A stretch of 64,000 nt of DNA, taken from assembly GCA_963757525.1 (NCBI GenBank), contig CAVWRM010000001.1:1463125-1527124 (forward strand), in the 5' to 3' direction. Shown here in pieces: positions 4 through 57,948 of this stretch (position 1 is its first letter; each line of letters starts with the position of its first letter). A model generated the notes under the pieces. The model was not told where the DNA came from. It made no database searches and saw only the letters and a program-made list of their open reading frames with translations. This stretch comes from an uncultured Gemmatimonadales bacterium (GTDB taxonomy: Bacteria > Gemmatimonadota > Gemmatimonadetes > Gemmatimonadales > GWC2-71-9). Both the position numbers and the translations under genes were made by a program.

Positions 4-351
4 TCAGCCCGGCGCCGGCGCGGCGGCGCGGAGTGCCCGCCCGGCGACGTCGACGAAGCGATGCCACGCGGAGCTGCCCGCCTGCAGCCGGGCGCGGCCG
101 GGGCGGGCCAGGCGGTAGTACTTGGCCTGCCGGTTGTTGTCGGAGACGCCCCACTCGGCGGTGATCCACCCGCGGCGCTCGAGCCGGTGGAGGGCGGGGT
201 AGAGCGTGCCCTCGCCGATCAGGAAGGCGGTATCGGTGGCCTGCGTGATCCATTCGACGACGGCGTAGCCGTGCCGCGGGCCCCAGCTCAGGGCCTTGAG
301 GATCAGGAGATCGAGGGTCCCGCGGAGGAGGTTGACGTCGAGGTCGTCCAT
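4..351 (-). CDS. PadR-family transcriptional regulator
   Basis: 115-aa track ORF with PadR winged-helix hallmarks (LLILKALSWGPRHGYAV, GTLYPALHRLERRGWI, AKYYRLA). Its TGA (4-6) overlaps an ATG (2-4, minus strand) of a gene running off the left edge. The same PadR-permease layout is seen at 61590-64000. Confidence 0.85.
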   Translation of the reverse strand: MDDLDVNLLRGTLDLLILKALSWGPRHGYAVVEWITQATDTAFLIGEGTLYPALHRLERRGWITAEWGVSDNNRQAKYYRLARPGRARLQAGSSAWHRFVDVAGRALRAAAPAPG

Positions 352-419
352 CGCCCGGTCTGGAGTAAGGTTCTTCGGAGTCTAGCACCCTCCCCTTGCC
401 ACGCAAGGGGTGCGCATCC

Positions 420-451
420 TTTCGCCCTTTCGCCCTTTCGCCCTTTCGGGC
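420..451. repeat. Tandem octamer array: TTTCGCCC x3 plus TTTCGGGC
   Basis: Read directly as tttcgccc tttcgccc tttcgccc tttcgggc, about 30 nt upstream of the kinase GTG at 484. The same octamer array recurs at 50408-50455 upstream of the closest paralogue. Confidence 0.9.
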
Positions 452-483
452 AGATTTCTGCCCGACCCTCACCCGGCACCACC

Positions 484-2883
484 GTGACCATCCCAACATC
501 CCTGGCCGACGCCCTGCGCGAGCGGTACGCGCTCGACCGCGAGCTCGGCCAGGGTGGCATGGCCACGGTGTACCTGGGACGGGACCTGCGGCACGACCGC
601 GCCGTCGCGATCAAGGTGCTCAAGCCCGAGTTGGCGGCCGCCATCGGGGCCGAACGGTTCCTCGCCGAGATCAAGACGACGGCCAATCTGCGGCACCCGC
701 ACATCCTGCCCCTCTACGACTCGGGTGAGGCGGCGGGCTTCCTCTATTACGTCATGCCCTTCGTGGACGGTGAATCGCTCCGCGACCGGCTCACCCGGCA
801 GAAACAGCTTCCCATCGACGAGGCGCTCGGCATCGCGCGTGAGGTGGCCGACGCGCTGGGCTATGCCCACGCCAGGGGCATCGTCCATCGCGACATCAAG
901 CCGGAGAACATCCTGCTCGAGGGCGGCCACGCCGTAGTGGCAGACTTCGGGATCGCCCGCGCGATGAGCGTCGCCGGCGGCGATCGGCTGACCCAGACCG
1001 GGACCACCCTCGGCACTCCGCTGTACATGAGCCCCGAGCAGGCCGCCGGCAGCGACGATCTCGACGGCCGGAGCGATCTCTACAGCCTCGGCTGCGTGCT
1101 GTACGAGATGCTCGGCGGACAGGCGCCGTTCACCGGGCCCACGGCCGAAGCCGTGGTTCGCCAGCACGTGCTGACGGTCGCGGCGCCCATCACCAACCTG
1201 CGCCCGACGGTTCCGCCCGACGTCGCCGGCGCGCTCGCGCGGTCGCTGGCGAAGAATCCGGCGGACCGGTTCAACCCCGCCGCGCAGTTCGTCCAGGCCC
1301 TCTCGGGCACCGGCCTCGCCACGACGCGTGCGACGCCCGGCCCACCCGTGCCGCCCGCGACGGCCGTGCCGCCCGCGCCGCCCCCGCCGGGTACGCGGCG
1401 AAAGTGGCTGACCCTCGCAATCGGCCTGGTCCTCGTGCTCGGCGTGGCGGGGTTCCTGGCGGCACGATGGAAGGGCTCGCGCGCTGCCGGCGCCATCCGA
1501 TCGATCGCCGTGCTCCCGCTCGACAACTATTCGGCCGATTCCACCCAGGACTACTTCGCCGAAGGCATGACCGACGAGCTGACGACGGATCTGGCGACCA
1601 TCAGCCGGCTCCGGGTGACGTCGCGCGGATCGGCGATGCAGTTCAAGGGGAAGAACCGTCCCTCGACGCCCGAGATCGCGAAGGCGCTCGACGTCGATGC
1701 GATCCTGGAAGGCTCGGTCAGCCGCTCCGGCGACCGGGTGCGGATCACCGCCCAGCTCATCGACGCGCGGGCGGACCGGCACCTCTGGGCCAAGAGCTTC
1801 GAGCGCAGCTCGAGCGATGTCCTCGCGCTGCAGGCGGAGCTCGCCTCGGCCATCGCCGAGGAGATCGATGTCCAGCTCACGCCGAGCGAGCGGACCCGTC
1901 TGTCCGAAGCGCCGAGCGTCGATCCCCAGGCGCACGACGCCTACCTCAAGGGCCGCTATTTCTTCAACCGTCCGAGCGACGCCAACCTGCGCCTGGCTAT
2001 CGCGCAGTTCGAGGAGGCGGTGCGGCTGAGTCCCACTTTCGCGCCGGCGCACGCGGGATTGTCCGACGCCTATCTCTGGGCCGGCTACAACGAGGGGTTC
2101 ATCACCGCGAGCGAGGCCAAGCCCAGAGCGAGGGCGGGCGCCGAGCGGGCGGTGGAGCTGGACAGCAGCTCGGCCGAGGCGCACACCTCCCTGGGCGTCT
2201 ACAGGGCCTGGCTGGAGCATGACTGGGAGGGAAGCCTGCGGGAGTTGCGCCGGGCCATCGCGCTCAATCCCAACTACGCCTTCGCGCACGATCAGTACGG
2301 CCAGGTGCTCAGCGTCGTCGGGCAGATGGACAGCTCGATCGCGGAGGGCAAGCGCGCGATCGAGCTCGACCCGCTCTCGCCGTCGATCTTGATCGACTGC
2401 GTCTTCACCCACATGTACCTGCGGGACACGGCGCGGGTGAGGGAGCTGATCACGAGGGCGGGCGAGCTCGATCCGACCTTTTATGCCGTTCCCACGATGG
2501 ATGGCTGGATGGACCTCGAGATTGGGCGGTACCGTGCGGCGGTTCCCAAGCTGGAGCGTGCGGCGAAGATGGAGGCGCCGCCCTTCGTGACGGCGATCCT
2601 GGGTTATGCCTTCGGCGCGTCAGGCGACCGGGCCCGAGCGCAGGCTACGCTGAAGGATCTCGAGAAGATTTCGCCCAGGGGCCAGGTTGCGCCGTTCAAT
2701 GCGGGAATGATCCGCCTCGGCCTGGGCGACAAGGAGCAGGCGATCGCGGATTTCGAGCGGGCCTACGCCGCCGATTCGGAGTTCCTGTTCTGGCTCGTGC
2801 AGGATCACCTGTTCGATCCGCTGCGGTCGATGCCGCGGTTCGTCGCGCTGATGAAGAAGCTCAACTCTCCAGCAGCTTCTTGA
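484..2883 (+). CDS. Ser/Thr protein kinase with a TM segment, a periplasmic module and a TPR-like C-terminus
   Basis: Track ORF 61..2883 trimmed to GTG 484 by alignment with paralogues (N-termini ..L..AL..RY..RELG.GGMATVYL). Hanks motifs present: GQGGMATVY, AIKVL, HRDIKPENIL, DFG, GTPLYMSPEQ. TM helix LTLAIGLVLVLGVAGFLAA, then IAVLPLDNYS... and TPR-like repeats. Confidence 0.9.
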   Translation: MTIPTSLADALRERYALDRELGQGGMATVYLGRDLRHDRAVAIKVLKPELAAAIGAERFLAEIKTTANLRHPHILPLYDSGEAAGFLYYVMPFVDGESLRDRLTRQKQLPIDEALGIAREVADALGYAHARGIVHRDIKPENILLEGGHAVVADFGIARAMSVAGGDRLTQTGTTLGTPLYMSPEQAAGSDDLDGRSDLYSLGCVLYEMLGGQAPFTGPTAEAVVRQHVLTVAAPITNLRPTVPPDVAGALARSLAKNPADRFNPAAQFVQALSGTGLATTRATPGPPVPPATAVPPAPPPPGTRRKWLTLAIGLVLVLGVAGFLAARWKGSRAAGAIRSIAVLPLDNYSADSTQDYFAEGMTDELTTDLATISRLRVTSRGSAMQFKGKNRPSTPEIAKALDVDAILEGSVSRSGDRVRITAQLIDARADRHLWAKSFERSSSDVLALQAELASAIAEEIDVQLTPSERTRLSEAPSVDPQAHDAYLKGRYFFNRPSDANLRLAIAQFEEAVRLSPTFAPAHAGLSDAYLWAGYNEGFITASEAKPRARAGAERAVELDSSSAEAHTSLGVYRAWLEHDWEGSLRELRRAIALNPNYAFAHDQYGQVLSVVGQMDSSIAEGKRAIELDPLSPSILIDCVFTHMYLRDTARVRELITRAGELDPTFYAVPTMDGWMDLEIGRYRAAVPKLERAAKMEAPPFVTAILGYAFGASGDRARAQATLKDLEKISPRGQVAPFNAGMIRLGLGDKEQAIADFERAYAADSEFLFWLVQDHLFDPLRSMPRFVALMKKLNSPAAS
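2854..2881. terminator. Inverted repeat (AAGAAGCT-N12-AGCTTCTT) spanning the overlapping stops of two convergent kinase genes; possible bidirectional terminator hairpin
   Basis: Arms at 2854-2861 and 2874-2881 are exact reverse complements. There is no T-run, so a terminator role is only inferred. Confidence 0.3.
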
Positions 2884-8472: not shown

Positions 8473-11319
8473 ATGACGGAACCCGACAGCACCCGGTCCG
8501 ACCGGTGGGATCGGATCAAGACCATTGTCGGGCGCGCCTTGGAGCGAGGGCCCGACGAGCGGACCGCCTTCGTCGCCGCGGCCTGTGGCGACGACGTCGA
8601 GCTCAACCGCGAGGTTGAGTCACTGCTCGAGGCGCACAGCGCGTCGATTTCGTTCTTTCAGACGCCCCCGGCCGATCCCTCGAGCCCGAAGGCTTCCCAG
8701 GAGTTGGCCGAAGGCCAGACCTTGGGGTGCTATCGGGTGCTCCGCGCGTTGGGGCGCGGGGGTATGGCTACGGTGTACCTCGCGCACGATCTGCGGCATC
8801 GTCGCTCGGTGGCCCTCAAGGTCCTTCACCCCCATCTCGCGCTCGCGCTCGGTCCCGGCCGATTTCAGCGCGAGATCGAGCTGGCTGCCAATCTCAGCCA
8901 CCCGCACATCCTGCCGCTTCATGACTCCGGCGAGGAAGCCGGCCTCCTTTACTACGTCATGCCGTACGTCGAGGGCGAGACGCTCCGGGACCGGCTCCGC
9001 CGCGAGACTCGGCTCGCCGTCCCCGACGCGGTTCAGATCACCCTCGAGGTCGCCGACGCGCTGGCTCATGCCCACGCCCACGGCGTGATTCACCGCGACA
9101 TCAAGCCGGCGAACATCCTGCTCAATGGGGGCCACGCCGTGGTCGCCGATTTCGGGATCGCTCGATTGGTCGAGCCGGGCGGCGCCGAGCGTGTCACCGA
9201 GACTGGCATGATCGTCGGCACCGTGGGCTACATGTCGCCCGAGCAGGCGAGCGGCGACCGGCAGCTCGACGGCCGGAGCGACGTGTATAGCCTGGGCTGC
9301 GTCCTCTTCGAGATACTTGCGGGCGAGCCCCCATTCGACGGGCCGACAGTTCGGTCCATCCTCATCAGGCAGCTGCGCGACCCGCCGCCGAGAGTTCGCG
9401 GGCTCCGGCCGGAGCTGCCGGATCATCTCGACGAGGTGCTGGCGCGGGCGCTGGCGCCCGCTCCCGACGACCGATTCGGAACGGCTGCTGAATTCACGCA
9501 GGCGCTGCGGCAGTCCGGTGTGGCAGGGACAAGTCTCTGGCGACGGGCCGTCTCCCGCGCCCGGCGGAGCCGCGGAATGGCAGCGACGGCGATAGTCGCC
9601 GCCGGCGTCGCGCTCGTCGTGGCGGGAGCGTGGGTGACTGTCTCGCGTAGAGAGCGGAGCCTGCCGGAGCGTCCCGCCGGCAGAATCCTCGCGGTCCTCC
9701 CGTTCGAGAACCTGGGCGACTCGGCCGACGCCTACTTCGCCGCCGGCGTTAGCGATGAGATACGTAGCCGGTTGTCGTCGATCCCCGGGATTCAGGTCAT
9801 TGGTCGCGGCAGCTCCAACGAATACCGGCATTCGGACAAGACCGCCCAACAGATCGCCCGGGAGCTCGGCGTCAATTATCTCGTGACCGCCACCGTCCGC
9901 CCGGCTGATAGCGGCGCATCGCGGACGGTCCACCTCAATCCCGAATTGCTCGAGGTTGCTGGAAGCGGAGGGCCTCGGGCGATCTGGCAGGGTCCCTTCG
10001 CTGAGCCGGTCACGAACGTGTTCCGGGCCTACGACAGCATTGTCATGGGTGTGGCAAAGGCGATGGATCTTCCGGTCAGCGACAGCACCCGGACGGGGCT
10101 GGCGCGGCGGCCGACCAGGAACAGCGAGGCGTATGAGGCGTATCTCCAGGGCGAGGCCGACGGCCTCGGCAGAGGGGACCCGGGTACCTTGAGAGACGCC
10201 CTGCCGCATTACGCACGAGCGGTCGGTCTCGACTCCACCTTCGCCGAGGCCTGGGCCAGGCTCTCGACCGTGTACTCGCAACTCTACTTCAATGGGTCTC
10301 CATCGCCGGAATACGCCCGGCTCGCGGGTCTCGGGGCGGAGCGGGCGGTGGCTATCGCTCCCGATGAGTCGGCCAGCCACCTCGCTATGGGTTACTACCG
10401 CCAGTTCGTCACGCGTGACGTGGCGGGTGCGGCCGCGGAGTATAGCGCGGCACTGCGATCGAGCCCCGACAACCCCGAGCCGCTGGCGGCCATTGCGCAG
10501 ATCGAGCAGATCGCAGGCCTGTGGGACCAGGCCATCGCCCATTTTCAACGAGCGCAGCAGGTCGAGCCTCGAGCCGCCGGCGTCGCGTTGAACGTCGCGA
10601 TGTCGATGCTCTGGACTCGGCGGTATCCCGAGGCGGAGCGCGCCATCCAGCGCACGCTGGCCCTCGACCCTCACCATATCCCGGCTATTGAGATGGCCGC
10701 TATGATCGACGCGGCACGAGGCGATCTGGCCGCGGCCCGGGCGAGGATCGCGGGGGCCCCGCCGTCGGTGGCCCGGGACGCTCTCGCGGCTGAGTTTGCG
10801 ATGGTGTGGGATCTTGTCTGGATGCTGGACGAGTCGCAGCAGCAGGCCATCCTGCGCACGACCCCCAAAGCGTTCTTCGACGACCGGGGCATCTGGGGCG
10901 TGGTGCTGGCGCAGACGCTCTGGCTGCATGGCCAACGGGCGCTGGCGGCGAGCTACGCCGATTCCGCCCGCGTGACGCTGTCCGATCGCGTGCGGGAAAA
11001 CCCGAAGGACGACCAGCAGCACCTCCTTCTCGGATTGAGCCTGGCGTATCTCGGGCGGAAGGACGAGGCGATCCGGGAGGGACTGCGCGGGCTGGCCCTG
11101 GGCCCGATGTCGAGCGACGCGCTGTACGGGCCCTACAACCAGCACTTGCTGATCCGGATCTATCTCCTGACCGGAGAGCGGGACAAGGCGATCGAGGGCC
11201 TCGAGCGTCTGTTGAAGGTGCCGTACTTCCTTTCGCCCGGCTGGCTCAGGATCGACCCCACATTCCAGCCGCTCCGGGGCCATCCGCGATTCGAGCGTCT
11301 GCTCTCGGGAGCCCAGTAG
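8473..11319 (+). CDS. Ser/Thr protein kinase with an N-terminal extension, a TM segment, a periplasmic module and a TPR-like C-terminus
   Basis: 948-aa track ORF with Hanks motifs GRGGMATVYLAHDL, HRDIKPANIL, DFG and GTVGYMSPEQ. TM helix AIVAAGVALVVAGAWV. The C-terminal ~540 aa are homologous to 2861..4558. Confidence 0.9.
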   Translation: MTEPDSTRSDRWDRIKTIVGRALERGPDERTAFVAAACGDDVELNREVESLLEAHSASISFFQTPPADPSSPKASQELAEGQTLGCYRVLRALGRGGMATVYLAHDLRHRRSVALKVLHPHLALALGPGRFQREIELAANLSHPHILPLHDSGEEAGLLYYVMPYVEGETLRDRLRRETRLAVPDAVQITLEVADALAHAHAHGVIHRDIKPANILLNGGHAVVADFGIARLVEPGGAERVTETGMIVGTVGYMSPEQASGDRQLDGRSDVYSLGCVLFEILAGEPPFDGPTVRSILIRQLRDPPPRVRGLRPELPDHLDEVLARALAPAPDDRFGTAAEFTQALRQSGVAGTSLWRRAVSRARRSRGMAATAIVAAGVALVVAGAWVTVSRRERSLPERPAGRILAVLPFENLGDSADAYFAAGVSDEIRSRLSSIPGIQVIGRGSSNEYRHSDKTAQQIARELGVNYLVTATVRPADSGASRTVHLNPELLEVAGSGGPRAIWQGPFAEPVTNVFRAYDSIVMGVAKAMDLPVSDSTRTGLARRPTRNSEAYEAYLQGEADGLGRGDPGTLRDALPHYARAVGLDSTFAEAWARLSTVYSQLYFNGSPSPEYARLAGLGAERAVAIAPDESASHLAMGYYRQFVTRDVAGAAAEYSAALRSSPDNPEPLAAIAQIEQIAGLWDQAIAHFQRAQQVEPRAAGVALNVAMSMLWTRRYPEAERAIQRTLALDPHHIPAIEMAAMIDAARGDLAAARARIAGAPPSVARDALAAEFAMVWDLVWMLDESQQQAILRTTPKAFFDDRGIWGVVLAQTLWLHGQRALAASYADSARVTLSDRVRENPKDDQQHLLLGLSLAYLGRKDEAIREGLRGLALGPMSSDALYGPYNQHLLIRIYLLTGERDKAIEGLERLLKVPYFLSPGWLRIDPTFQPLRGHPRFERLLSGAQ

Positions 11320-18320: not shown

Positions 18321-20867
18321 ATGCCCGTACCGGACTCCCTGCGCGACTCCCTCAGCGACCGTTACACCGTCGACCGCGAGCTCGGCCGCGGCGGCATGGC
18401 CACCGTCTACCTCGCCCACGACCGGAAGCACGATCGCCAGGTCGCCCTCAAGGTCCTCCGGCCCGAGCTCGCCGCCGTCCTCGGCGCCGAGCGGTTCCTC
18501 GCCGAGATCCGGGTCACCGCCAACCTGCAGCACCCCAACCTGCTGCCGCTGTTCGAGTCGGGTGAGGCCGGCGGTTTCCTCTATTACGTCATGCCCTACG
18601 TCGAGGGCGAGACGCTCCGCGCCCGCCTCGAGCGCGAGCGCCAGCTCCCGGTGGATGAGACGGTTCGCCTGGTCACCCTCCTCGGGAACGCCCTCGCCTA
18701 CGCCCACGCCCGCGGCGTGATCCATCGGGACCTGAAGCCGGAGAACATCCTCCTCCAGTCGGGCCAGCCGGTGATCGCCGACTTCGGCATCGCGCTCGCC
18801 GTCGCCCAGGCCGGCGGACACTCGCGTCACCGAGACCGGCCTCTCCCTCGGCACCCCGCACTACATGAGCCCCGAGCAGGCCGCCGCCGAGCGGGAGATC
18901 GACGCCCGGTCCGACCAGTACGCCCTGGCCGCGGTGGCCTACGAGATGCTGCTCGGGCGAGCCGCCCCACACCGGACCCACGGCCCAGGCGATCATCGCG
19001 CGGCTCATGACCGAGCCGGTCCGCGACCTGCGCGCCACTCGGCCCGGCGTGCCCGTCGAGGTGGAGCGCGCCGTGACCCGCGGCGCTGTCGAAGTCGGCG
19101 GCCGACCGGTTCGCCTCCGTGAATGACTTCGTCGCCGCACTGACAACTCCCGCAGAGGCTGCATCGGAACGTCGCGCCGTCGCGCCGTCCCGCCGTTCCG
19201 CCGCGCTGCGCTGGATCATCCCTGCCGTTCTCGTCGCAGTCGCAGCGTTCGCCGTCAGCCGCATGCGACGCACCGGCCACACGGGCAGCGCCAACGCCCC
19301 CGACAATCTCCGCGTCGTCGCCGTCCTCCCCTTCCGCAACCTCTCGCGCGACACCGCGCAGCAGTACTTCAGCGCCGGCATGACCGAGGAGATCGCCACC
19401 CAGCTCTCCCGCGTCGCCGCGCTCCGCGTGCTGAGCCGCACCGCCACCGCGCAGTACGACACCGTGGGCGACCGGCTCCAGCGGATGTCGCGCGAGATGG
19501 GTGTGGGCAGCGTGGTGGACGGCAGCGTGCGTCTGGCCGGCGACCGGGTCCGCATCGCCGTCGAGCTGACCAGCGTGCGGACCGGCCAGTCGCTCTGGAC
19601 GGAGCAGTACGACCGGCAGCTCTCGGACCTGTTCGCGGTGCAGGACGACGTCGCCCACAAGGTGACGGCGGCACTCCGGGCCCGGCTCACTCCCGCCGAG
19701 GCCAAGCGGGTGGCCCACGCGCCGACCTCGAACATGGCGGCATACCAGGTCTACCTGCGGGCCCAGGACCTGAACCCCATTCAGCGCGCCGGGAACATCG
19801 CCCGCGCCGAGCTGCTGCGGCAGGCCATCGCGCTCGACACGGGATTCGCCGAGGCCTGGGCCCAGCTGGCGCGCAATCACTTGTTTCGGAGCGTGGCGGG
19901 CGAGCGGATCTACACCGACTCCGCGTTCATCGCCGCGCGAAAGGCCGTCGCGCTCGACCCCGAGCTGGCCGACGGCTGGTTCGCGCTCGGCGACCTGGAG
20001 AGCGTCGTCTTCAGGCTGTCCGATGCCCGGCGCGCCTACCTCAAGGCGCTGGAGCTGAACCCGAGCCACGGCGGCGCCATGGCCGACCTGGCTAACGTCT
20101 ACGTCGCCCTCGGCCGCTACGATGAAGCGCTCGACTGGTCGCTGCGCAATGAGCAAATCAGTCCGACCGAATCCCACGGCCCCTACCACGTCACCCTCGG
20201 CCTGATGCCGCTCGACGACGACTCGGCCACCAGCCGCTATCTGCTCGCCGCGGAGCGGCGCTTCCCGGCCGAGCCCAGGATCCAGATACTGCTGTCCTGG
20301 CTCGACCTGAGGCGCGGGTCAAACCAGGCAGCCCTCGAGCGGGTCCGCCGCGTGCTGCGGAGCGATCCCGACAACACCGAGGTGCCGCCGAACCTGGCCG
20401 AGCTGGCGGTGGTGGTGGAAGCACCCGACGCCGAGCGGCTCATCGAGCCGCTGGCCCGCCAGGACCCCGAGGCGATCGGGCAGATGTTTCCCGAGTCGCT
20501 CCGGTCGCTCTATGCCCTGACCCTCCATCGCCGGGGGGACACCCGTCGCGCCGCCGAGCTGTGGCAGGCCTCGGCCGCCGCGGCGCAGCGGCACCTCGAT
20601 GCCGGCCAGGAGAGCTACAACGCCCCGATGGAGCTGGCCGCGATCAACGCGATCCAGGGTCAGACCGGCGCGGCGCTCGAATGGCTCGAGCGCGGCTATC
20701 GGGCCGGATGGAGGGATGCCCGGCTCCTGAATCTCGATCCCTTCTTCGCCTCGGTGCGGCGGGAGCCGCGATATCAGGCCCTGGTCACCGCCATGACGCA
20801 GGATGTCGCGGAGATGAGGAAGCGCGCGGCGGCCGCGCATCCAGCACTGTTCGGCCCGCCGCGCTAA
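18321..20867 (+). pseudogene. Ser/Thr protein kinase (kinase-TM-periplasmic/TPR) interrupted by three single-nucleotide insertions
   Basis: Track ORFs 18321..19010, 18865..19122 and 19119..20867 are consecutive pieces of one kinase. The pieces are [12 protein letters not shown] / [27 protein letters not shown] / [27 protein letters not shown] / [18 protein letters not shown]... The frame moves 0>1>2>0 at about 18816, 18957 and 19082. Each shift is explained by one extra G relative to paralogues. Confidence 0.8.
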
Positions 20868-26569: not shown

Positions 26570-27241
26570 ATGCGCCCCTGCCGATCCCGAGATATTATAG
26601 GAAAGGCACCGACCCCCCGACGACCGGCTGACGAATTGTCTCACTCCGCCTCCACAACGGTAGGCCACCTGCTCCAGGAGCTGAGGGCGGGGAACCAGAC
26701 CGCCTTCGGCGAGCTCCTGCCGCTCGTCTACGACGAGCTGCACCGGCTCGCCGAGCGCCAGCGCGGGCGGTGGCAGGGCGACGAGACGCTCAACACGACG
26801 GCGCTCGTGCATGAGGCCTACCTGAAGCTGGCCGATCAGTCGATGCCCGAGTGGCAGAGCCGCGCTCATTTCCTGAGCGTGGCCTCGACCGCCATGCGGC
26901 AGATTCTGATCGACTACGCCAAGCGGAAGTGCGCCGCCAAGCGCGGCGGGCGACAGCGGCATGTGCCGCTGCACGAGGTCGAGGGCGCCCTGGGTCAGGC
27001 CGAGCCCTCATCCGAAATGTGTGACGAGGCCCTGATCGCGTTGGACGATGCGCTGCGCCGCCTCGACCAGTCGAACCGGCGGCAGATGCGAATCGTCGAG
27101 TGCCGGTTCTTCGGCAACATGTCGGTGGACGACACCGCGGAGGCGCTCGGCGTCTCCCCGGCCACGGTGAAGCGCGGCTGGGGGATGGCGCAGGCGTGGC
27201 TCTACCGCGACCTCAAGCAGACGGTGGAGCAGGCGGGGTGA
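26570..27241 (+). CDS. ECF-type RNA polymerase sigma factor (STK-associated subgroup)
   Basis: Homologous to 57388..57948 along its whole length (ELRAGNQTAFGELLPLVYDELHRLA, TTALVHEAYLKL, ECRFFGNMSVDDTAEALGVSPATVKRGW). The start is uncertain. TTG 26636 matches the paralogue N-terminus better than ATG 26570. Confidence 0.85.
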   Translation: MRPCRSRDIIGKAPTPRRPADELSHSASTTVGHLLQELRAGNQTAFGELLPLVYDELHRLAERQRGRWQGDETLNTTALVHEAYLKLADQSMPEWQSRAHFLSVASTAMRQILIDYAKRKCAAKRGGRQRHVPLHEVEGALGQAEPSSEMCDEALIALDDALRRLDQSNRRQMRIVECRFFGNMSVDDTAEALGVSPATVKRGWGMAQAWLYRDLKQTVEQAG

Positions 27242-30200
27242 GCCCCGACCGTGTGGAGGAGCTGTTCGAGCGCGCCCGCTCGATGGGCGCCGAGGCCCGG
27301 GCCTCGTTCCTGGCCGAAGCCTGTGGCGACGATTCCCAACTGGAGCAGGAGCTGACCTCCCTGCTCGCCCACGCGGAGCCCGCCGAGTCGTTCTTTGCCG
27401 GGCTGGCCGAAGCCGTCGTCTCGCCCGCAGTCGGTCACGAGGTCGGCCACTACCGGCTGGAAGGCATCCTGGGAACCGGCGGTATGGGTACAGTCTATCG
27501 TGCCCACGACACTCGGCTCGACCGGATGGTGGCCCTCAAGTTTCTTCCCCTGCATCTCAGTGCCCACCCCGAGGCCCGGGAACGATTCCTGGTCGAGGCC
27601 CGCGCCGCGGCTGCCCTGGAGCACCCCAACGTCTGCAGCATTCATGAGATCGGAGACACCGACGACGGCCGGCCGTTCATCGCCATGGCCTGCTACGAAG
27701 GGGAGACGCTCAAGGAGCGCCTGAGTCGAGGCCGGCTGTCGCCCCGGGAGGCGGTGGATATCGCCGTACAGCTGGCCTGCGGCCTCGGCGCTGCGCACGC
27801 GCGCGGCATCGTTCACCGGGACGTCAAGCCGGGCAACATCATGGTCTGCGCCGATGGCACGGTCCGCCTGCTGGATTTCGGGCTGGCGAAGATGGCCGAT
27901 ATCAACCTCACTGGTCCCGGGGCGACGCCGGGCACCATCGCCTACATGTCGCCGGAGCACGCCCGCGGCGACGCGGTGACGCACCTGACCGATCTGTGGA
28001 GCCTTGGTGTCGTGCTCTACGAGATGCTCTCGGGGGAGCGCCCATTTCGCGGCGGCAACGACCGCGCCGTCATCCAGTCGATCCTCCACGATCAGCCGAC
28101 GCTTCCTCCACCTGCCAATGCCATCCCGCGCCTGCCCCGGATCGTGAAGCGCCTGCTGCGGAAGGCGCCGGAGGAGCGGTATCAGACGACGGACGAGCTG
28201 CTGTCCGATCTCGGACGGACGCATCCCGCAGGTCGGCTCGACGCTGCGGACGGCTGGGTGCGGACCCACCTCCGGACGCTCTCCGTGAGCGTCGCAGGTC
28301 TCGTCGTGGCGGTCGCGCTGCTCTTCCTGGTCCGGCCGGTCCACCCATCCGGGACCGCCGCGCCCCCACCCGGTGCGACGTCGCGGGCTCCCACCATCGC
28401 GGTGCTTCCGTTCACCGTGCGCGGCCCGAACCTCGACGTCTGGCGCGAGGGGATGGTGGATCTTCTCTCCCTCGGGCTCGACGGAGCCGCCGGGATTCGG
28501 GCGATCGACAGTCGCACGCTCCTCGCCCGCTGGCACCAGGAGATTGGGGACACCTCCGTCACCGATCTCGCTCGGGCGCTGGGCGTCGCTCGCCGGAGCG
28601 AGGCGCGCTATGCGCTGGTCGGCTCCGCGGTCGCGTCGGGACCGCGCGTCCGATTGGGTGGGGAGGTGTACGACGTCGCGAGCGGCAATGTCATGGGGCC
28701 GGTGCAGGTGGAAGGGCCGTCCGACTCGGTGCTGGCGCTCCTGGATCGCCTGGGCATGCAGACGCTCGGTGTCGTGCTGAAGAAAAATCCGGGCGAGCTC
28801 CCCGCACTCGATCTGGCTGCGGTGACGACCACGTCGCTCATGGCGCTCAAGGCGTACCTCGAGGGCGAGGACCACTATCGGCGCTCCGAGTTTCGCCAGG
28901 CGACTGAAGCGTGGGAGCGGGCCGTGGGAGCGGACCCTCAGTTCGCGTTGCCCCATCTCGGGCTGGTGGACTCGTATGCGTGGGAGGGTGACGACGGCCC
29001 GACGCGGGTCCCGCCGCATCTCGAGCGCGCCCGGAGACTGGCCGAACGGCTGCCGATTCGGGAACGCACGATGGTGCAGGCCCGCCTGGCGGTGTACACC
29101 GGTGATCCCGAGGCGGTTCCCACGATCCGCGAAGCCATCCGGAAATACCCTGACGCCGCCGAGGCGTGGTACGCGCTGGGAGAGGTGTATTTCCACCAGG
29201 CGCTGGCATGGGGTGGCCCGGAGGACGCGCAACAGGCCTTCCGGAGGGCGGCGGAGCTCCAGCCGACGATGGCTCCGTACCGCCTGCATCTCCTCGACCT
29301 GGCGTTCATCTGGAAGCCCGATAGCGCGGCTATCGCGCGCGAGCTCGAGGCCTATGGCCGGCTGGCCCCGGAAGCCGCCGAAATGCGAGCCGGCCGGATC
29401 GCGCTCGCCCTGGCCTTTGGTGACACTGGCGCCCGTGCTCGAGTCAGGGCTCGGCTCGCCACCCTGGATTCCCAAGCGGCGTTCGAGGTCTATTGCTTTC
29501 TGTTCCACCCTCGCTTCTCCGACCAGAGGGAAGCGGTCTTTCCGGCTCTGGACCCCCACTTCGGCGCGAGCGGGCGTGCCGGCATTCATGAGGCGCGGGT
29601 CCGGCTCCTCGGGCTCATGGACGGTCGGGTTCACGACGCGTTGGCCACGCTGGCCGATTCCTCGAACCCGAGCTCTGTCGGGTACTGCGGCCCCCTGTAC
29701 CTGTCGGTGCGGGGAATGCCCGTGCCAGAACGGACGCTGCGGCAAAGCCTGGCTGCCGCCCAGGCGGACCCGTCGCTGTTCTCCACTCGGCTCGCTGCAA
29801 CCTGTGCCACTGCCACCGCGGCACGGCTGGGCGATTGGAAGGCCTACCGGGCCATGCTGTCCCGCATGCGGGAGAACGCGGCCCGTCAACTGGCCGCCGG
29901 CGACAGTCACGGCGCCAGGCGGTGGGACTGGGCCGTCCACGCCTCCGAGGCACATGGGCTCTGGCGCCGTGGCCGGAAGGCGGAGGCCCTGCGTGCGTTC
30001 GAGGGCACGCTTGCAGGAGATCAGGGCTGGTTCACGCTCTGGAACGTGGGCCAGCTCTCGCTCGAGCTCGGCCGACTGGACCAGGCCGAGCGCGCCTTCC
30101 GGACGCTCTGGCGACAGGACGGGACCCCGTCCTACCTGCAGCTCGCCCGGATCCTTGAGCGGACCGGCCGGCGCGCCGAGGCACTCGAGGCCTACCGGTT

Positions 30201-47820: not shown

Positions 47821-48699
47821 ATGAAGGCGCTCAGGATGGCTGTTACCGGATTCGTCGCGATCACCGCATGCTCCCGATCCGCCCCGGAACGTGGGACCGA
47901 GGCCAGCCGGACACCCGACACCTACCACGAGGCCGCCGCAGCTCGGCAGGGCTTGGTCCCCCTGAGCGCCGTGCCCCAGTCCGGGCCCGCCTCACCCCCG
48001 GCCTCGGCGCGAGCCTCCGCCGGGCGTCCAGCTCCCCGGAGCCAGGGTTCCGAGTCCGTGATCGTGGATACATCCCCCTATGCGACCGCGGAACGCGATA
48101 CCGGCATAACCACTGATACGATGGGCTATCGCGCGTACTCGGGCGCCGATGGCGCTCGATCGGCCGGCCCCGGACGCGCCAATGCCGTCGTGGTGGGCAC
48201 GGTGATTCATGTGAGCCTCCGGGACTCGATCGACTCGAAGCGCGATTCGAGCGGGAAGGAGATTTCCGGGATGGTCATGCAGAACGTCACCGGACCGGGC
48301 GGAGAGGTCCTGGTGCGCGCGGGATCGCCGGTGATGCTCACCATCTCCCGCCTCCGGCCGGGCCGCGGCAGCGGCCAGGGCGCCATCGAGGTCCATCCCG
48401 ATTCGATTACGCTCGAGGGCCGCATGCGAAAGCTGGAGGCCACGATCGCGTCGGTGCCGTACGAGCTCAGAGGCCGCGGCGTGACCGGTGAAGATGCGGC
48501 CAAGGTCGGGATCGGGACGGTGGGCGGCGCCGTGGTGGGCCGAGTGATCACCGGCAAGACCAAGGGCGCCGTCGTCGGCGGCGTGGTCGGCGCGGCGGGT
48601 GGCGCCGTGGTCGCGTCGCAGACGGCGGCAAAGGACGTGGTGGTAGGGGCTCGAACGCCGGTCGAGATGGTGCTCACCGCTCCGCTCGTCGTCCGCTAA
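47821..48699 (+). CDS. Lipoprotein with a C-terminal glycine-zipper segment
   Basis: ATG 47821 with GGGAGGA upstream and lipobox FVAITAC. Glycine zipper GIGTVGGAVVGRVITGKTKGAVVGGVVGAAGGAVVA. Confidence 0.55.
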   Translation: MKALRMAVTGFVAITACSRSAPERGTEASRTPDTYHEAAAARQGLVPLSAVPQSGPASPPASARASAGRPAPRSQGSESVIVDTSPYATAERDTGITTDTMGYRAYSGADGARSAGPGRANAVVVGTVIHVSLRDSIDSKRDSSGKEISGMVMQNVTGPGGEVLVRAGSPVMLTISRLRPGRGSGQGAIEVHPDSITLEGRMRKLEATIASVPYELRGRGVTGEDAAKVGIGTVGGAVVGRVITGKTKGAVVGGVVGAAGGAVVASQTAAKDVVVGARTPVEMVLTAPLVVR

Positions 48700-50351
48700 C
48701 CCCTCAGCCGCACCCGCGGGCCGATGCGCAGCTCATGTCCTTCGTGCGAAAGAAGAACCTCTGCCACGGGGCGGGCCTCCCGGGAACGGGGTTGGTGCAT
48801 GACCCACCACTCCTCCGCTCGCTGGGCGGTCCATGCCGAGGTCAGGGGAACGCGGTCCAGGCGGGCGCTGAACGCATCCGCGCTCGGTGGACGCCGCGCA
48901 GGCTCCTTCTCCAGACACTCCATGACGAGATCCTCGAGCGACGCCGGGATGGGCAGCTCGATCCGCGTCGATGGCCTCGTCGGGGGCGCCTGTGCGTGCT
49001 GGATCATCACCTGCATGACGGTCTCGCCCTCGAAGACCATCGTGCCGGTGAGGAGCCAGTAGGCGACGCAGCCCAGCGCGTAGAGGTCGACCCGATGATC
49101 GGTGTCGGTGGCGCCGAGGACCACCTCGGGCGCCATGTAGCCGGGTGTGCCGCTCCAGCTGCTTTCGCCGCTGAGGTTGACGGCATCACGGTCGGCGCGC
49201 CGAGCGCTGTCGAGCTTGACGAGTCCGAAGTCGAGCACTTTGACGAAATCGAAGGTCGTGCCGGCCCGACTGAGGACGATGTTCGCGGGCTTGATGTCGC
49301 GGTGCACCAGGCCGTTGGCGTGTGCGTCCTGGAGCGCCGAGCAGACCTGGGCCAGGATGTGGACGACACGCTCAGCCGGAAGCGGCCCGTGCTGCCGGAC
49401 GAGTGTGTCGAGGTCGAGACCGTCGAGCAGCTCCATCACGTAGTACAGCCGCCCATCCTCGGCGACGCCGAAATCGTAGAGTTGGACCGTGTGCGGGGAC
49501 GTGAGCGCCGCTGTGGCGCGCGCTTCCCGCTCGAAGCGCCGCATGAGCAGCTCGGGGTCGCCGGACGCGGCTGCCACCGCCTGGGGGCGGATGAGCTTGA
49601 TCGCCGCTGGCCGGATCAGCAGGCGGTGGCGCGCGCGCCACACTTCTCCCATGCCACCTCCACCGATCCTGTCTTCGAGGAGATACTGCCCCAGCTCGGT
49701 CGCTTCGACGACCTGCCGTCGAAGTCCGTACAGGACGCGTGAAACGATGGTGGCCAGCGTGGTCCCCAGAACGCTCCAGAGTACGGTGTTGAGCGTCATG
49801 TGCAGCTTCTGATAGCCCGCGCTGAATCCGGGAAGGAACGCCGTGGGGTGATGACGAGTGATGCACACGACAACCGCCGGGGCGAAGACCAGGGCCGAGA
49901 GCAACAGGGTTCGCCCCGGCCTGGAGGGCATCAGGATGGCGCGGACCATGACCGTGACCGTCAGGGCCAGCAGCGTCTGCAGGATCTGCCCCTCGTCCTC
50001 GATCGTCATGAGAGAGAGGAACCCGCCGGCCACGACGAAGCTGACGGCGTCGAGCGCTCCCAGGCTCCATAACGAGAGCCTGGCCCGAGTCGCCAGCAGC
50101 CAGAGCAGGGCCATCGTCAAGCTGGCGAGAAGGTGTCCGAGCGCCACCGGTCCGCGCACCACGGCAAGGAAGGGCGCGCCGCCGATCAGCGTCAGACTGG
50201 CGAGGAGGAAGAGGTAGAACCCGAACGACACGAGGAAGAGCGTCTTGCCGAGCAGCGCCAGGCGCTCCCGCACGAATCCCAATCCGCCGGACGTGTCGAA
50301 TCCCCGCTCGAGGAGGGGAGGCGCCGGAGGGTGGCTCGCGATGGTAGTCAT
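48696..50351 (-). CDS. Polytopic membrane Ser/Thr protein kinase (N-terminal multi-TM region, C-terminal kinase)
   Basis: About 6 TM helices in the first 210 aa. Then GGGGMGEVWRA, AIKLI, HRDIKPANIV, DFG and GTPGYMAPE. Confidence 0.85.
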   Translation of the reverse strand: MTTIASHPPAPPLLERGFDTSGGLGFVRERLALLGKTLFLVSFGFYLFLLASLTLIGGAPFLAVVRGPVALGHLLASLTMALLWLLATRARLSLWSLGALDAVSFVVAGGFLSLMTIEDEGQILQTLLALTVTVMVRAILMPSRPGRTLLLSALVFAPAVVVCITRHHPTAFLPGFSAGYQKLHMTLNTVLWSVLGTTLATIVSRVLYGLRRQVVEATELGQYLLEDRIGGGGMGEVWRARHRLLIRPAAIKLIRPQAVAAASGDPELLMRRFEREARATAALTSPHTVQLYDFGVAEDGRLYYVMELLDGLDLDTLVRQHGPLPAERVVHILAQVCSALQDAHANGLVHRDIKPANIVLSRAGTTFDFVKVLDFGLVKLDSARRADRDAVNLSGESSWSGTPGYMAPEVVLGATDTDHRVDLYALGCVAYWLLTGTMVFEGETVMQVMIQHAQAPPTRPSTRIELPIPASLEDLVMECLEKEPARRPPSADAFSARLDRVPLTSAWTAQRAEEWWVMHQPRSREARPVAEVLLSHEGHELRIGPRVRLRG

Positions 50352-50354
50352 GGT

Positions 50355-50455
50355 GGCGAATTCTAGGGCGAAATGACGAAATGGCGAACCGCCTATCCAG
50401 CTACTGGTTTCGCCCTTTCGCCCTCTCGCCTTTTCGCCTTTTCGCCCGTTCGCCT
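50355..50455. repeat. TTCGCC-type octamer arrays in both orientations within a divergent kinase-kinase intergenic region
   Basis: Direct array at 50408-50455: tttcgccc tttcgccc tctcgcct tttcgcct tttcgccc gttcgcct. Inverted array at 50366-50389: gggcgaaa tgacgaaa tggcgaac, plus ggcgaa at 50355-50360. Confidence 0.9.
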
Positions 50456-50474
50456 TATCCTAGATGCACCCCTC

Positions 50475-53099
50475 ATGACCCAACCTCCCTCCCGCCTCGC
50501 GGCCGCCCTGGCCGACCGCTACCGCATCGAGCGCGAGCTCGGCGCCGGCGGCATGGCGACGGTCTACCTCGGGCACGATCTCCGCCACGACCGGAAGGTC
50601 GCCATCAAGCTGCTCAAGCCCGAGCTCGCCGCCGTGATCGGCGCGGAGCGGTTCCTGAGCGAGATCCGAACCACCGCCAACCTCCAGCATCCGCACATCC
50701 TGCCGCTGTTCGACTCGGGTGAGGCCGACGGCTTCCTCTTCTACGCGATGCCGTTCGTCGAAGGCGAATCGCTGCGCGACCGGCTCGCGCGGGAGAAGCA
50801 GCTGCCGGTGGGCGACGCGGTCCGGATCGCCACCGAGGTCGCGAGCGCCCTCGACTACGCCCACCGCCACGGCGTCATCCACCGGGACATCAAGCCCGAG
50901 AACATCCTGCTGCACGATGGCTCGGCGCTCGTGGCCGACTTCGGTATCGCGCTCGCTGCCAGCAAGGCCGGCGGGACCCGCATCACCGAGACCGGTATGT
51001 CGATCGGGACGCCGCACTACATGTCGCCCGAGCAGGCGATGGGTGAGCGCGAGATCACCGCCCGGAGCGACATCTACGCGCTCGGCGCGGTCACTTACGA
51101 GATGCTGATCGGCGAGCCGCCCTTCACCGGTCCTACCGCGCAGGCCATCGTGGCCCTGGTGCTGACCGAGGACCCGCGGCCGCTGCTCCCCCGCCGGCGC
51201 TCCATCCCGCCCGAGGTCGAGGAGGCCGTCCTCACCTCGCTCGAGAAGCTCCCGGCCGACCGGTTCGCCACCGCGCACGAGTTCGCCGAGCATCTCGGCG
51301 CCGAGCGGACCAGCCGCCGCACAGGCGCCCGCGCGCGTGCCACCGCGGACGCGCCATCGTGGCGCCGATCGGCCGTGCTCGTGGCGGGCGGCGCCGCACT
51401 CATCGTTGCGGGCTATCTCGCCGGCGCTCGCCGGTCGCACAGCGCCGCGCTGCCGATGAGCTTCGGCTCCGTGGACAGGGTGACCTGGGATCCCGCCCTC
51501 GAGGTGCTGCCGGCGATCTCCCCCGACGGGAGAACGGTGGCCTACGCGAGCGGCACGCCGGTCCGCATGCGGGTGTTCGTCCGGCCGGTGGCCGGCGGCC
51601 GCCGCATCGCGCTCACCGACGACACGACCCAGGTCCAGTCGCATCCGCGCTGGTCGCCCGACGGAAGCCGGGTGCTCTTTCTCGAGCGGGGCGGCGTGGT
51701 GAGCGTGCCCGCCAGCGGCGGCGCCGAGACCGCGGAAGTGCCGCCGGGGCGAACCGGGCCGGTGATCTCGGCGGCGTGGGCGCCCGACGGCAAGCGGATC
51801 GCGTACGTGATCGGCGACTCGGTCTTCGTCCACGAGCCTCGCGGCGATTCGCACGGAATCGCCCGGGTGTTCGAGGCCCACGGCTGCGCCTGGAGTCCGG
51901 ACGCGGCACAACTCGCGTGCGTCTCGGGCAACGCCATCGCGCTCACGCCGGGGACCCTGTTCGGCAACGCCTCGCCCAGTCGGGTGGTGAGCGTGCGCGT
52001 GAGTGATGGCCGGGTCGTGCCGGTCACCGACAGCCTCTTTCCCAACCTGAGCCCCGCGTGGTCGCCCGACGGGCGCTGGGTCTACTACGTCTCCAGCCGC
52101 TTCGGTCCGCGCGACATCTTCGCCCAGGCGGTGGCCGGGGGAGCGCCGCGCGGGCCGGCGCTCCGGCTCACCACCGGCCTCAACGCCCACACCATCTCGC
52201 TCTCGGCGGACGGCAGGCGGATCGCGTATGCCGATCTCGCCATCGAGAGCAATGCCTGGTCCATCCCCGTGCCGGCACACCTGCCGGTCCCGGCGTCGAG
52301 CGCGATCCAGCTCACCCACGGGTCCCAGTTCGTCGAGACGACCCAGCTCTCCCGCGACGGCCACTGGGTGTACTACGACTCCGACGTGAGCGGCAACATG
52401 GACCTGTACCGCATGGCGCTGCCCGCCGGCGCGCCCGAGCGGCTCACCGCCGACTCGAGCGACGACTTCTGGCCCACACCGTCGCCCGACGGCCGTGAGG
52501 TCTCGTTCCACTCCTGGCGGGGAGGCTCGCGCGACATCTGGGTCATGCCGCTCGACGGCGGCCCGCTGCAGCGGGTGACCTCCTCGCCCGCCCAGGAGGC
52601 CATGGCCATGTGGGCGCCCGACGGGGATCAGCTTTCCTACTCGCTCTTCACGGAGCGGGGCGGCATCTGGACGGCGCGCCGGGTGAACGGCGCCTGGCAG
52701 AAGCCGGTCGAGCGCCTCGGCTGGGGCTTCTTCGCCAACTGGTCGCCCGACGGCCGCACGCTCGCCTTCGGCAGCTCGCTCACGAGTGGGTCGCTCTGGA
52801 CCATGCCGGCCGACTCGGGCGCACCCCGGCTCCTGGCCGACACCACCGGGCCTCGAGCGCTGCTGGGGGACCAGGTGCGATGGAGCGACGACGGCCGCTC
52901 CGTCTATACCCGGAACGCCGACGCGACCGGCACGACGTTCTGGCGCATCCCGCTCGGTGGTGGCACACCCGAGCGGATCGTGACGCTCGAAGGAGGACAG
53001 CGTTCGTCCGGCGGGTGGGGCAACGCGGCGGGCCGGCTGGTCTACGCGGTATCCGAAGAGCGGAGCGACCTGTGGGTCATGGAGGTCCGGACGCCGTAG
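50475..53099 (+). CDS. Ser/Thr protein kinase fused to a TolB-like beta-propeller
   Basis: Track ORF 50373..53099 trimmed to ATG 50475 (MTQPPSRLAAALADRYRIERELGAGGMATVYL). Kinase motifs HRDIKPENIL, DFG and [12 protein letters not shown] helix AVLVAGGAALIVAGYLAGA. Many WSPDG repeats follow. Confidence 0.9.
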   Translation: MTQPPSRLAAALADRYRIERELGAGGMATVYLGHDLRHDRKVAIKLLKPELAAVIGAERFLSEIRTTANLQHPHILPLFDSGEADGFLFYAMPFVEGESLRDRLAREKQLPVGDAVRIATEVASALDYAHRHGVIHRDIKPENILLHDGSALVADFGIALAASKAGGTRITETGMSIGTPHYMSPEQAMGEREITARSDIYALGAVTYEMLIGEPPFTGPTAQAIVALVLTEDPRPLLPRRRSIPPEVEEAVLTSLEKLPADRFATAHEFAEHLGAERTSRRTGARARATADAPSWRRSAVLVAGGAALIVAGYLAGARRSHSAALPMSFGSVDRVTWDPALEVLPAISPDGRTVAYASGTPVRMRVFVRPVAGGRRIALTDDTTQVQSHPRWSPDGSRVLFLERGGVVSVPASGGAETAEVPPGRTGPVISAAWAPDGKRIAYVIGDSVFVHEPRGDSHGIARVFEAHGCAWSPDAAQLACVSGNAIALTPGTLFGNASPSRVVSVRVSDGRVVPVTDSLFPNLSPAWSPDGRWVYYVSSRFGPRDIFAQAVAGGAPRGPALRLTTGLNAHTISLSADGRRIAYADLAIESNAWSIPVPAHLPVPASSAIQLTHGSQFVETTQLSRDGHWVYYDSDVSGNMDLYRMALPAGAPERLTADSSDDFWPTPSPDGREVSFHSWRGGSRDIWVMPLDGGPLQRVTSSPAQEAMAMWAPDGDQLSYSLFTERGGIWTARRVNGAWQKPVERLGWGFFANWSPDGRTLAFGSSLTSGSLWTMPADSGAPRLLADTTGPRALLGDQVRWSDDGRSVYTRNADATGTTFWRIPLGGGTPERIVTLEGGQRSSGGWGNAAGRLVYAVSEERSDLWVMEVRTP

Positions 53100-57387: not shown

Positions 57388-57948
57388 ATGACCTCCGTTG
57401 TGGACCTGATCCGGGGGGTCCGGGCCGGAGACCGCAGCGAGTTCGACCGGCTCTTCTCCTCCCTCTATGACGAGCTTCGCCGCGTTGCGCACCGGCACCT
57501 GCGCCACCGGGTCCCGGGGCAGACGCTGGACACCACCGCGCTCATCCACGAGGCCTACCTCAGGATGGTGGATCAGAGCCGGGCGGAGTGGGCCGATCGG
57601 GCCCACTTCTTCGCGTATGCCTCGCAGGTGATGCGGGCGGTGCTGGTGGACGAGGCCCGGCGCCGGGGCGCGGTCAAGCGCGGCGCCGGCACACTCCGCT
57701 TCTCTCTGGAAGACCGCGATCTCCCCGTGGAAGAGCAGAGCGAGTTCGTCCTCGCGCTCGACGAGGCGCTCGACCGGCTCGGCGCGCTGAGCGAGCGCCT
57801 GGCCCGCACCGTGGAGTGCCGCTTCTTCGGCGGGATGAGCGAGGAGGAGATCGCCGCGGCCCTCTCGGTCTCCGGCCGCACGGTGCGCCGCGACTGGCTC
57901 AAGGCCAGGGCCTGGCTCTCCGCCGAGTTGTCGGGCGAGGCGACGTGA
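57388..57948 (+). CDS. ECF-type RNA polymerase sigma factor (STK-associated subgroup)
   Basis: 186 aa with VRAGDRSEFDRLFSSLYDELRRVA, TTALIHEAYLRM and ECRFFGGMSEEEIAAALSVSGRTVRRDW. It is a paralogue of 26570..27241. Confidence 0.85.
   Translation: MTSVVDLIRGVRAGDRSEFDRLFSSLYDELRRVAHRHLRHRVPGQTLDTTALIHEAYLRMVDQSRAEWADRAHFFAYASQVMRAVLVDEARRRGAVKRGAGTLRFSLEDRDLPVEEQSEFVLALDEALDRLGALSERLARTVECRFFGGMSEEEIAAALSVSGRTVRRDWLKARAWLSAELSGEAT

Follow-up and report, generated by a model that had tools for sequence, protein, structure and literature searches.

Recently gained octamer arrays at three kinase promoters of a Gemmatimonadales bacterium: candidate gene-less arms of an intervening-sequence-like repeat element

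The window analysed here, a 64-kb stretch of DNA from an uncultured Gemmatimonadales bacterium with a G+C content of 69%, contains nine protein kinase genes, and short tandem arrays of one octamer directly precede three of them (K1, K5 and K6) and none of the other genes. In our reading, which we hold at a probability of about 0.55, these arrays are recently acquired, hypermutable and gene-less arms of a repeat element resembling the intervening sequences (IVS) of 23S rRNA genes. They would then be selfish or near-neutral passengers and not a dedicated regulator of kinases. Of the possible origins, a widespread repeat element that forms hairpins and is related to IVS cassettes, gene-less here, has the best support; that the window arrays derive from such cassettes is something we infer.

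The first array is located upstream of K1, which encodes a kinase with Pkinase and TPR domains (484..2883, plus strand). Three perfect units of TTTCGCCC form a solo pyrimidine-rich array at 420..443 of the plus strand and are followed by a variant fourth unit, TTTCGGGC (444..451, plus strand). The latter doubles as the left arm of a 9-bp palindrome, TCGGGCAGA-TT-TCTGCCCGA (446..465), whose core GCAGATTTCTGC is kept in the K1 orthologue L122. The distance from the array end to the GTG start at 484 is 32 nt, which agrees well with the original prediction of three exact units plus the variant about 30 nt before a kinase start. No partner arm was found for the K1 array.

The other two arrays occupy the region between the divergent genes K5 (48696..50351, minus strand), in which an N-terminal region precedes a C-terminal kinase domain and which is highly conserved across Gemmatimonadales, and K6 (50475..53099, plus strand), which encodes Pkinase and PD40 beta-propeller domains. 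The K5-side array (50366..50389) is purine-rich on the plus strand; read on the minus strand (50389-50366), its three units are GTTCGCCA TTTCGTCA TTTCGCCC. It is the 5' arm of an inverted pair, abuts the TAGAAT box of K5 and ends 14 nt before the ATG at 50351. The pyrimidine-rich 3' arm (50408..50455, plus strand) comprises six units with a period of 8, namely TTTCGCCC TTTCGCCC TCTCGCCT TTTCGCCT TTTCGCCC GTTCGCCT. It abuts the hexamers TATCCT/TAGATG and ends 19 nt before the K6 ATG at 50475. Six copies of the octamer had been predicted at this paralogue; the number of units is right, but only three of them are exact, and the other three carry one or two changes. With the 18-nt spacer between them (50390..50407), both arrays make up an imperfect inverted repeat (z = -3.7 for the DNA fold and -4.2 for the duplex), and the purine fraction is 0.67 in the 5' arm and 0.15 in the 3' arm. 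The minus-strand array, the inverted repeat and the palindrome at 446-465 are additions to the original prediction.

TRF reported 3.9 copies at 418-448 (100% match), 5.9 copies at 50408-50454 (87% match) and 2.5 copies at 50369-50388 (91% match). By this analysis the window arrays consist of head-to-tail short units, perfect or near-perfect, as bacterial SSRs and VNTRs are defined. The exact octamer TTTCGCCC occurs 10 times in the window versus 2.0 times expected, a number reached in none of 100 shuffles, and tandem dimers with up to three mismatches are present only at the three array sites (0.8 per shuffle). The window arrays are real and non-random.

A gene for a PadR-family regulator (4..351, minus strand; PF03551, E = 1.3e-19) is divergent from K1, and the intervening DNA is, as predicted, a divergent PadR/kinase promoter region. 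The small hairpin foreseen at 392..410 is real as well. It has an 8-bp stem, CCCCTTGC-CAC-GCAAGGGG, is identical base for base in L122, and overlaps the putative minus-strand promoter of the PadR gene, TTGCGT-16-TAGACT (TAGACT at 385-380). This hairpin is likely the PadR operator, probably autoregulatory, and separate from the repeat element.

All three arrays end at -10-like hexamers. The putative -10 box of K1, CAGATT (451..456), lies inside the palindrome; that of K5, TAGAAT (50360..50365, minus strand), is located 8 nt before the ATG and is kept in the array-less K5 orthologue L245. At K6, the sequence TATCCTAGATG (50456..50466, plus strand) comprises the overlapping -10-like hexamers TATCCT and TAGATG and ends 8 nt before the ATG. 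The array stops exactly at such a hexamer in four of four Gemmatimonadales cases, the fourth being the K6 orthologue in L257. The motif TTCGCC is found 16 bp from CAGATT at K1 and 17 bp from both TAGAAT at K5 and TATCCT at K6. The K1 orthologue in L122 reads TGGACA-17-CAGATT, and the TGGACA half of it is missing in the window. A general role of the array as a -35 supplier was considered and rejected: the unit TACCGCCC in L257 has nothing -35-like, and the spacing of TTCGCC remains a local observation. Since TANNNT was not enriched at any offset 3' of the array in 217 loci among the matches listed, the -10 fit in Gemmatimonadales is not a general rule. These promoter assignments, and any effect on expression, are predicted from sequence.

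The earlier idea that copy number would change the core promoter spacing is doubtful. The arrays lie 5' of the -10-like boxes. Each one directly adjoins its box and repeats every 8 bp, so that the distance from TTCGCC to the box would be constant at any copy number; with TTCGCC staying at 16-17 bp, changes in unit number need not alter the -35/-10 spacing. The K5 and K6 arrays are probably located 5' of the transcription start and, if so, are not transcribed.

SD-like motifs are lacking before K1, K5 and K6 and are rare in the window as a whole. Many starts have a -10-like hexamer 6-15 nt upstream, at 8-12 nt in several genes including K5, K6 and K9 (starts examined: 50351, 50475, 18321 and 13324 in the window, 1371 in L120 and 3001 in L245), and at many starts a C-rich stretch, often CCACC, is located directly 5' of the ATG. 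This suggests that leaderless or very short-leader mRNAs are widespread in the lineage. The gene K9 is the ninth kinase of the window (18321-20867). Its frame is lost inside the kinase domain, indicating either a pseudogene or sequence errors; regions of note are 18800-19010 and 19170-19203, and its juxtamembrane region contains a coding period-8 quasi-repeat, CGTCGCGC CGTCGCGC CGTCCCGC CGTTCCGC. The kinases K2, K3 and K7 possess N-terminal extensions of 85-205 residues before the kinase domain (8473-8730, 27100-27450 and 57588-58200); on visual inspection, the extensions of K3 and K7 look similar to the C-terminal portion of ECF-type sigma factors.

Orthologous loci were collected by protein searches and exact-protein look-ups. 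The syntenic K1 orthologue in L122, where the PadR gene is also divergent from the kinase (88% nucleotide identity), retains the hairpin, the CAGATT box, the GCAGATTTCTGCCCGACCCTCACCCGGCA stretch and the GTG start, and has 25 unrelated nucleotides in place of the 39-nt segment that contains the K1 array. L245 (89% nucleotide identity to K5) retains TAGAATTCG..CC..ATG and TAGAATTCGgCCgCCATG; it has no array, and the sequence 5' of TAGAAT is unrelated to that in the window. Orthologues of K5 in other contexts, including L246 and L256, are array-free, as are the K6 orthologues L120 (82.5% nucleotide identity) and L267 (85% amino acid identity). L120 has the same CATATT box as the loci of another K6 orthologue, P0248, and unrelated DNA at the array site. 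Among the orthologues examined, a related array, with a different unit, was found only in the P0248 lineage, and no unit-like seed is present in the orthologues at the sites of the window arrays.

A conserved cis element of this kinase subfamily, one of the two options offered by the original prediction and tied by it to conservation at orthologous loci, is not supported by these data: the arrays are absent from L122, L245, L246, L256, L120 and L267. Since they are missing in L122, L245, L120 and L267 while the flanking features are kept, the window arrays appear to have been gained after the split from relatives about 88% identical in DNA.

Several further loci of the order were recorded in this survey. 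The closest relative of K1, L121, shares 92% nucleotide identity over the gene, although its first 12 or so codons differ and its N-terminus is K6-like. The upstream region (L121 1-330, compared with 484-519 of the window) is unrelated; it contains GGCGAAAG GGCGAGGC GGCGAGAG, a degenerate array rich in purines. The breakpoint falls inside an N-terminal motif common to the paralogues, which hints at swapping of 5' ends between kinase genes. In L119 (173-5250) and L120 (1371-6391), the K6 and K1 orthologues are neighbours within tandem kinase operons, the stop codon of one overlapping the start codon of the next; in the window, 50 kb separates K1 from K6, and the two genes have separate promoter regions.

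Ten contigs of various metagenome samples contain the K6 orthologue P0248 (82% amino acid identity). Its ATG is preceded, at a distance of 18 nt, by an array of CCGCCCTA units, or TACCGCCC in the other register, that abuts CATATT; TACCGCCC and TTTCGCCC match at six of eight positions. The array has four units in three contigs, five in six contigs and six in one contig, with only 0-1 mismatch in 600 flanking nucleotides (300 nt per side). The locus behaves as an 8-bp VNTR at the same relative position as the K6 array. Thus, of the original alternatives, the microsatellite was nearer the mark than the conserved element, but its supposed duplication together with the paralogue fails. For TTTCGCCC arrays in other taxa, differences of one unit between metagenome samples were seen within single loci.

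The K6-type array is not the only one in these contigs. At a third kinase of the L257 contigs, (C)TTCGCGC repeats are found 14 nt 5' of the ATG, and two of the three kinases in L257 have short arrays just 5' of the ATG. In L257-L266, a frameshifted gene for a four-helix-bundle protein (PF05635/TIGR02436, the '23S rRNA intervening sequence protein' family; e.g., L257 1971-2482) is located between the array and a second array copy. The kinase-side array is the 5' arm of the PF05635 gene, and a complementary array is present on its far side. Along the reading direction of this gene come first GGCGGTAG x5-6 and 65 nt, then the gene itself, and finally GGCGGTAG-type units x4, 12 nt, and TACCGCCT x3.5. 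Recombination between the two direct arrays would excise the PF05635 gene. The product would run from a purine-rich arm through a short spacer to a pyrimidine-rich arm, followed by a -10 box and the ATG, as is seen between K5 and K6. The K5-K6 pair may have been derived by such an excision, with units and spacers that differ between the lineages.

Paralogy offers no simple explanation for the distribution of the arrays. Over the kinase domain, K1 and K6 are 57-64% identical, so that their description as closest paralogues is roughly right; K5 shares 36-38% with either. K1 and K6 are long-separated paralogues that both have orthologues of their own throughout the order, and the K1 array postdates the divergence from a relative with 91% amino acid identity. 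Because the K1/K6 split is older than the lineages and the K1 array is younger, the arrays were not inherited with a duplicated gene, an option that is also eliminated by the array-less L122 and by the distant position of K5 among the paralogues. Recent gene conversion of the K1 and K6 upstream regions was rejected as well, with no sequence in common between the array and codon 10.

The association with kinases is suggestive but statistically weak within Gemmatimonadales. The other six of the nine kinases in the window are array-free, and the location of the arrays before kinases has p ~ 0.05 if counted as two independent intergenic regions. The other Gemmatimonadales loci were obtained through kinases, so the kinase link there is not independent. 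An enrichment upstream of the kinase subfamily, for which the original prediction had suggested a test, was not seen: among the matches listed, kinases were found in none of 118 genome loci and in two of 120 metagenome loci with arrays, in neither case adjacent to the array. All three window arrays and the kinase arrays of L257 precede kinases, which leaves room for a kinase-related role in this order.

The wider distribution of the octamer was surveyed by scanning public genomes with TTCGCCNNTTCGCCNNTTCGCC and metagenomes with an exact 23-mer; the matches listed are examples and do not represent frequencies. Among them, TTCGCCNN or TTTCGCCC arrays occur in contigs of 29-72% G+C from many phyla, and 55% of the arrays fall within the lowest fifth of their locus by covering-ORF length, i.e., they are mostly intergenic. 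A crude ORF test revealed no bias in orientation relative to the next gene start (42 versus 36). Viral control scans with three composition-matched units and the target gave 1, 0, 0 and 1 matches and were uninformative. Of 242 arrays among the matches listed, 42 have a GGCGAA-type partner 5' of the TTCGCC array and three have it 3', counts in which some loci appear on both strands or from several samples. The spacers between inverted partners range from 21 nt to about 600 nt, and the arm order of the K5-K6 pair agrees with this asymmetry.

An HMM built from the Gemmatimonadales PF05635 gene and run on the array loci identified relatives in about nine independent array loci of other taxa among the matches listed, always with the purine-rich array 5' of the gene and the pyrimidine-rich array 3' of it. 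Loci with PF05635/TIGR02436 genes outside rRNA between such arms are L257-L266, L042, L163, L173, L183/L218, L189/L227, L193, L008 and L066. In a test independent of the repeat, a PF05635 protein was searched against plasmids, which gave 22 records; in seven of the eight examined (L268-L275), purine-rich short tandem repeats are present 5' of the start and complementary pyrimidine-rich ones 3' of the stop. The units of 7-8 nt in these cassettes differ between genomes (e.g., GGGAGCA and GCAGGGGA), and one of the seven is a true IVS in Azospirillum 23S rDNA (L275). A limited literature search found no report linking PF05635 genes outside rRNA to tandem-repeat arms, and a full-text search for the octamer itself returned nothing relevant.

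The K5-K6 pair has arms like those of such an IVS-like cassette, complementary and purine-rich at the 5' side and pyrimidine-rich at the 3' side, while the K1 array is solo. No PF05635 gene was detected in the 64-kb window by tblastn or HMM, and only 18 nt separate the K5-K6 arms. Rfam 15 gave no match at the gathering score in the window or in eight cassette loci. Contigs from Verrucomicrobiota and related bacteria (L012, L070, L140 and L211, also L028, L079 and L209) contain elements of 200-350 nt with inverted octamer-array ends and with cores that share nested palindromes, e.g., GGCTCAAAnCCGGCGCG and CTCGGCGCGCCGAG. These elements look like a MITE-like family with repeat-array termini. As to MITE features in the window, the K5-K6 region has inverted arms and no recognisable target duplication.

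Several known repeat systems resemble the window arrays in part. In 23S rRNA genes of, e.g., Coxiella and Leptospira, IVS with an S23p/PF05635 ORF possess complementary termini that pair into a stem for RNase III, and the elements are considered selfish (PMC4990558). The common traits are complementary terminal arms, a long stem around a small four-helix-bundle ORF and a sporadic distribution; the Azospirillum IVS (L275), with its purine-rich quasi-repeat 5' arm and complementary 3' arm, has the same structure as the octamer-armed cassettes. Unlike these IVS, the window elements are located outside rRNA genes in kinase promoters, lack an ORF and are probably untranscribed, and their arms are perfect tandem octamer arrays of probably variable copy number. 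The TAACTGA heptamer forms intergenic direct repeats in Beggiatoaceae, Cyanobacteria and Bacteroidetes (PMC4679880). As in the window, two to six (sometimes many more) head-to-tail units of 7-8 nt are found a few nucleotides before starts that lack a canonical ribosome-binding site, and the distribution is patchy across phyla with no functional pattern in the downstream genes. The TAACTGA repeats differ in unit and period, are proposed to act in the transcribed leader, and have no reported inverted-arm architecture or PF05635 link.

GGGAATC heptamer SSRs are known from Xanthomonas and Nostoc in a study which remarks that SSRs of 6-9 nt seldom receive attention (PMC4692102). In these SSRs and in the cyanobacterial STRR heptamers, as in our case, one unit of 7-8 nt proliferates per genome in intergenic regions and no regulatory role has been demonstrated. 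The GGGAATC repeats, however, form G-quadruplexes, occur mainly 3' of ORFs, are conserved across species and are depleted in the intergenic regions of divergent genes, whereas the window arrays are promoter-proximal and not conserved, and one of their sites is between divergent genes. In contingency loci, promoter microsatellites give phase variation via the spacing of promoter elements (summarised in PMC4692102). The window arrays share with these the tandem repeat in a promoter, and at the related P0248 locus the copy number varies between near-identical genomes, but the unit is 8 nt long and not 1-5 nt, the host is free-living with a high G+C content, and the array is located 5' of the -10 box with TTCGCC phase-invariant at 16-17 bp.

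Some of these observations would also follow if the arrays were plain microsatellites formed in situ by independent slippage from chance seeds, with a unit set by genome-specific mutational bias and no relation to PF05635. The copy-number variation is typical of slippage, K1 has a single arm, no PF05635 gene is present in the window, and about 83% of the 242 arrays among the matches listed have no partner within 1.5 kb. An origin of this kind is nevertheless rather unlikely: the orthologues lack a unit-like seed at the array sites, one unit at three sites in 64 kb would be a coincidence of about one in thousands if the events were independent, and slippage predicts neither the purine-first K5-K6 pair nor the 42:3 asymmetry among the matches listed. 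Ribbon-helix-helix repressors provide a different model, with MetJ binding tandem 8-bp met boxes and the omega repressor binding heptad arrays. By analogy, the window arrays could be operators on which a DNA-binding protein polymerises along 8-bp units and co-regulates kinase promoters in the lineage. Contiguous units of 7-8 bp do extend over the promoter, overlapping the -35/spacer region and ending exactly at the -10-like boxes of K1, K5, K6 and the L257 K6 orthologue. As with omega heptads, some arrays stand in direct and others in inverted order, and copy numbers of 2-10 are typical of the MetJ and omega operators. Every window array precedes a kinase, and so do the (C)TTCGCGC repeats of L257. 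Yet the arrays have no known cognate protein and are absent at orthologous promoters, the unit depends on the lineage (TTTCGCCC versus TACCGCCC), octamer arrays in other phyla among the matches listed have no kinase neighbours, and copy number drifts freely within one population at the P0248 locus. The only candidate repressor considered was the adjacent PadR, for which the hairpin at 392-410 is the likely site. We regard such operators as very unlikely.

A role at the RNA level appears most improbable. The arrays would then end up in the mRNA as unstructured, pyrimidine-rich 5' leaders to which the ribosome is recruited, e.g., via protein S1, or serve as RNase III substrates where paired. The lack of SD-like motifs before K1, K5 and K6 and their scarcity in the window would fit this role, TAACTGA repeats near start codons have been proposed to act in this way (PMC4679880), and the arms of true IVS form an RNase III stem (PMC4990558). 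Against it stand the -10-like box that in K5 and K6 separates array and start, at just 8 nt from the ATG, the retention of the K5 box in an orthologue without an array, and the lack of an Rfam family match.

The reading that we prefer, namely gene-less arms of an IVS-like element, may be outlined as follows. Purine-rich (GGGCGAAA type) and complementary pyrimidine-rich (TTTCGCCC type) arrays would form the two arms of a long hairpin, which often encloses a PF05635 four-helix-bundle gene, as in the 23S rRNA intervening sequence. The copies in the window would be gene-less, with a complete inverted pair between K5 and K6 and a solo pyrimidine-rich arm before K1. They would have replaced the former -35 and upstream promoter DNA of the three kinase genes, and the probable effect would be a weakening or resetting of these promoters. 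Each unit gained or lost would shift the parts further upstream, for instance the PadR operator or the partner promoter, by 8 bp. A point against the origin from cassettes is that, beyond the unit, the window arrays have no sequence in common with any cassette; since only the unit is common to both, the homology rests on architecture. The exact stop at a -10-like hexamer in Gemmatimonadales is unexplained by the passenger model.

We also put forward, tentatively and as a speculation, a broader view. The arrays might be arms of undescribed mobile IVS-like cassettes that occur across phyla, with a PF05635 gene in a purine/pyrimidine tandem-repeat stem and the 23S rRNA IVS as one special case, and that decay to gene-less hairpins and solo arms. 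The Gemmatimonadales remnants next to the -10 boxes of sensory kinases might then make hypermutable 8-bp VNTR promoters.

For this locus, the result is mostly deflationary, and the arrays should not be annotated as a regulatory motif of a kinase family. What the window does offer is a genome in which the upstream halves of three signalling-kinase promoters appear to have been recently replaced by the same repeat, so that the turnover of promoters by repeats can be put to the test in a soil bacterium that is free-living and rich in kinases. The occurrence of PF05635 genes outside rRNA between purine-rich and complementary pyrimidine-rich arms was not found in the literature searched, and gene-less arm pairs with this polarity occur here and there in many phyla. 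Should a genome-wide survey confirm it, this finding would join the 23S rRNA IVS, an orphan four-helix-bundle family and a class of bacterial repeats with 7-8-nt units, and it would provide a handle on the movement of these elements.
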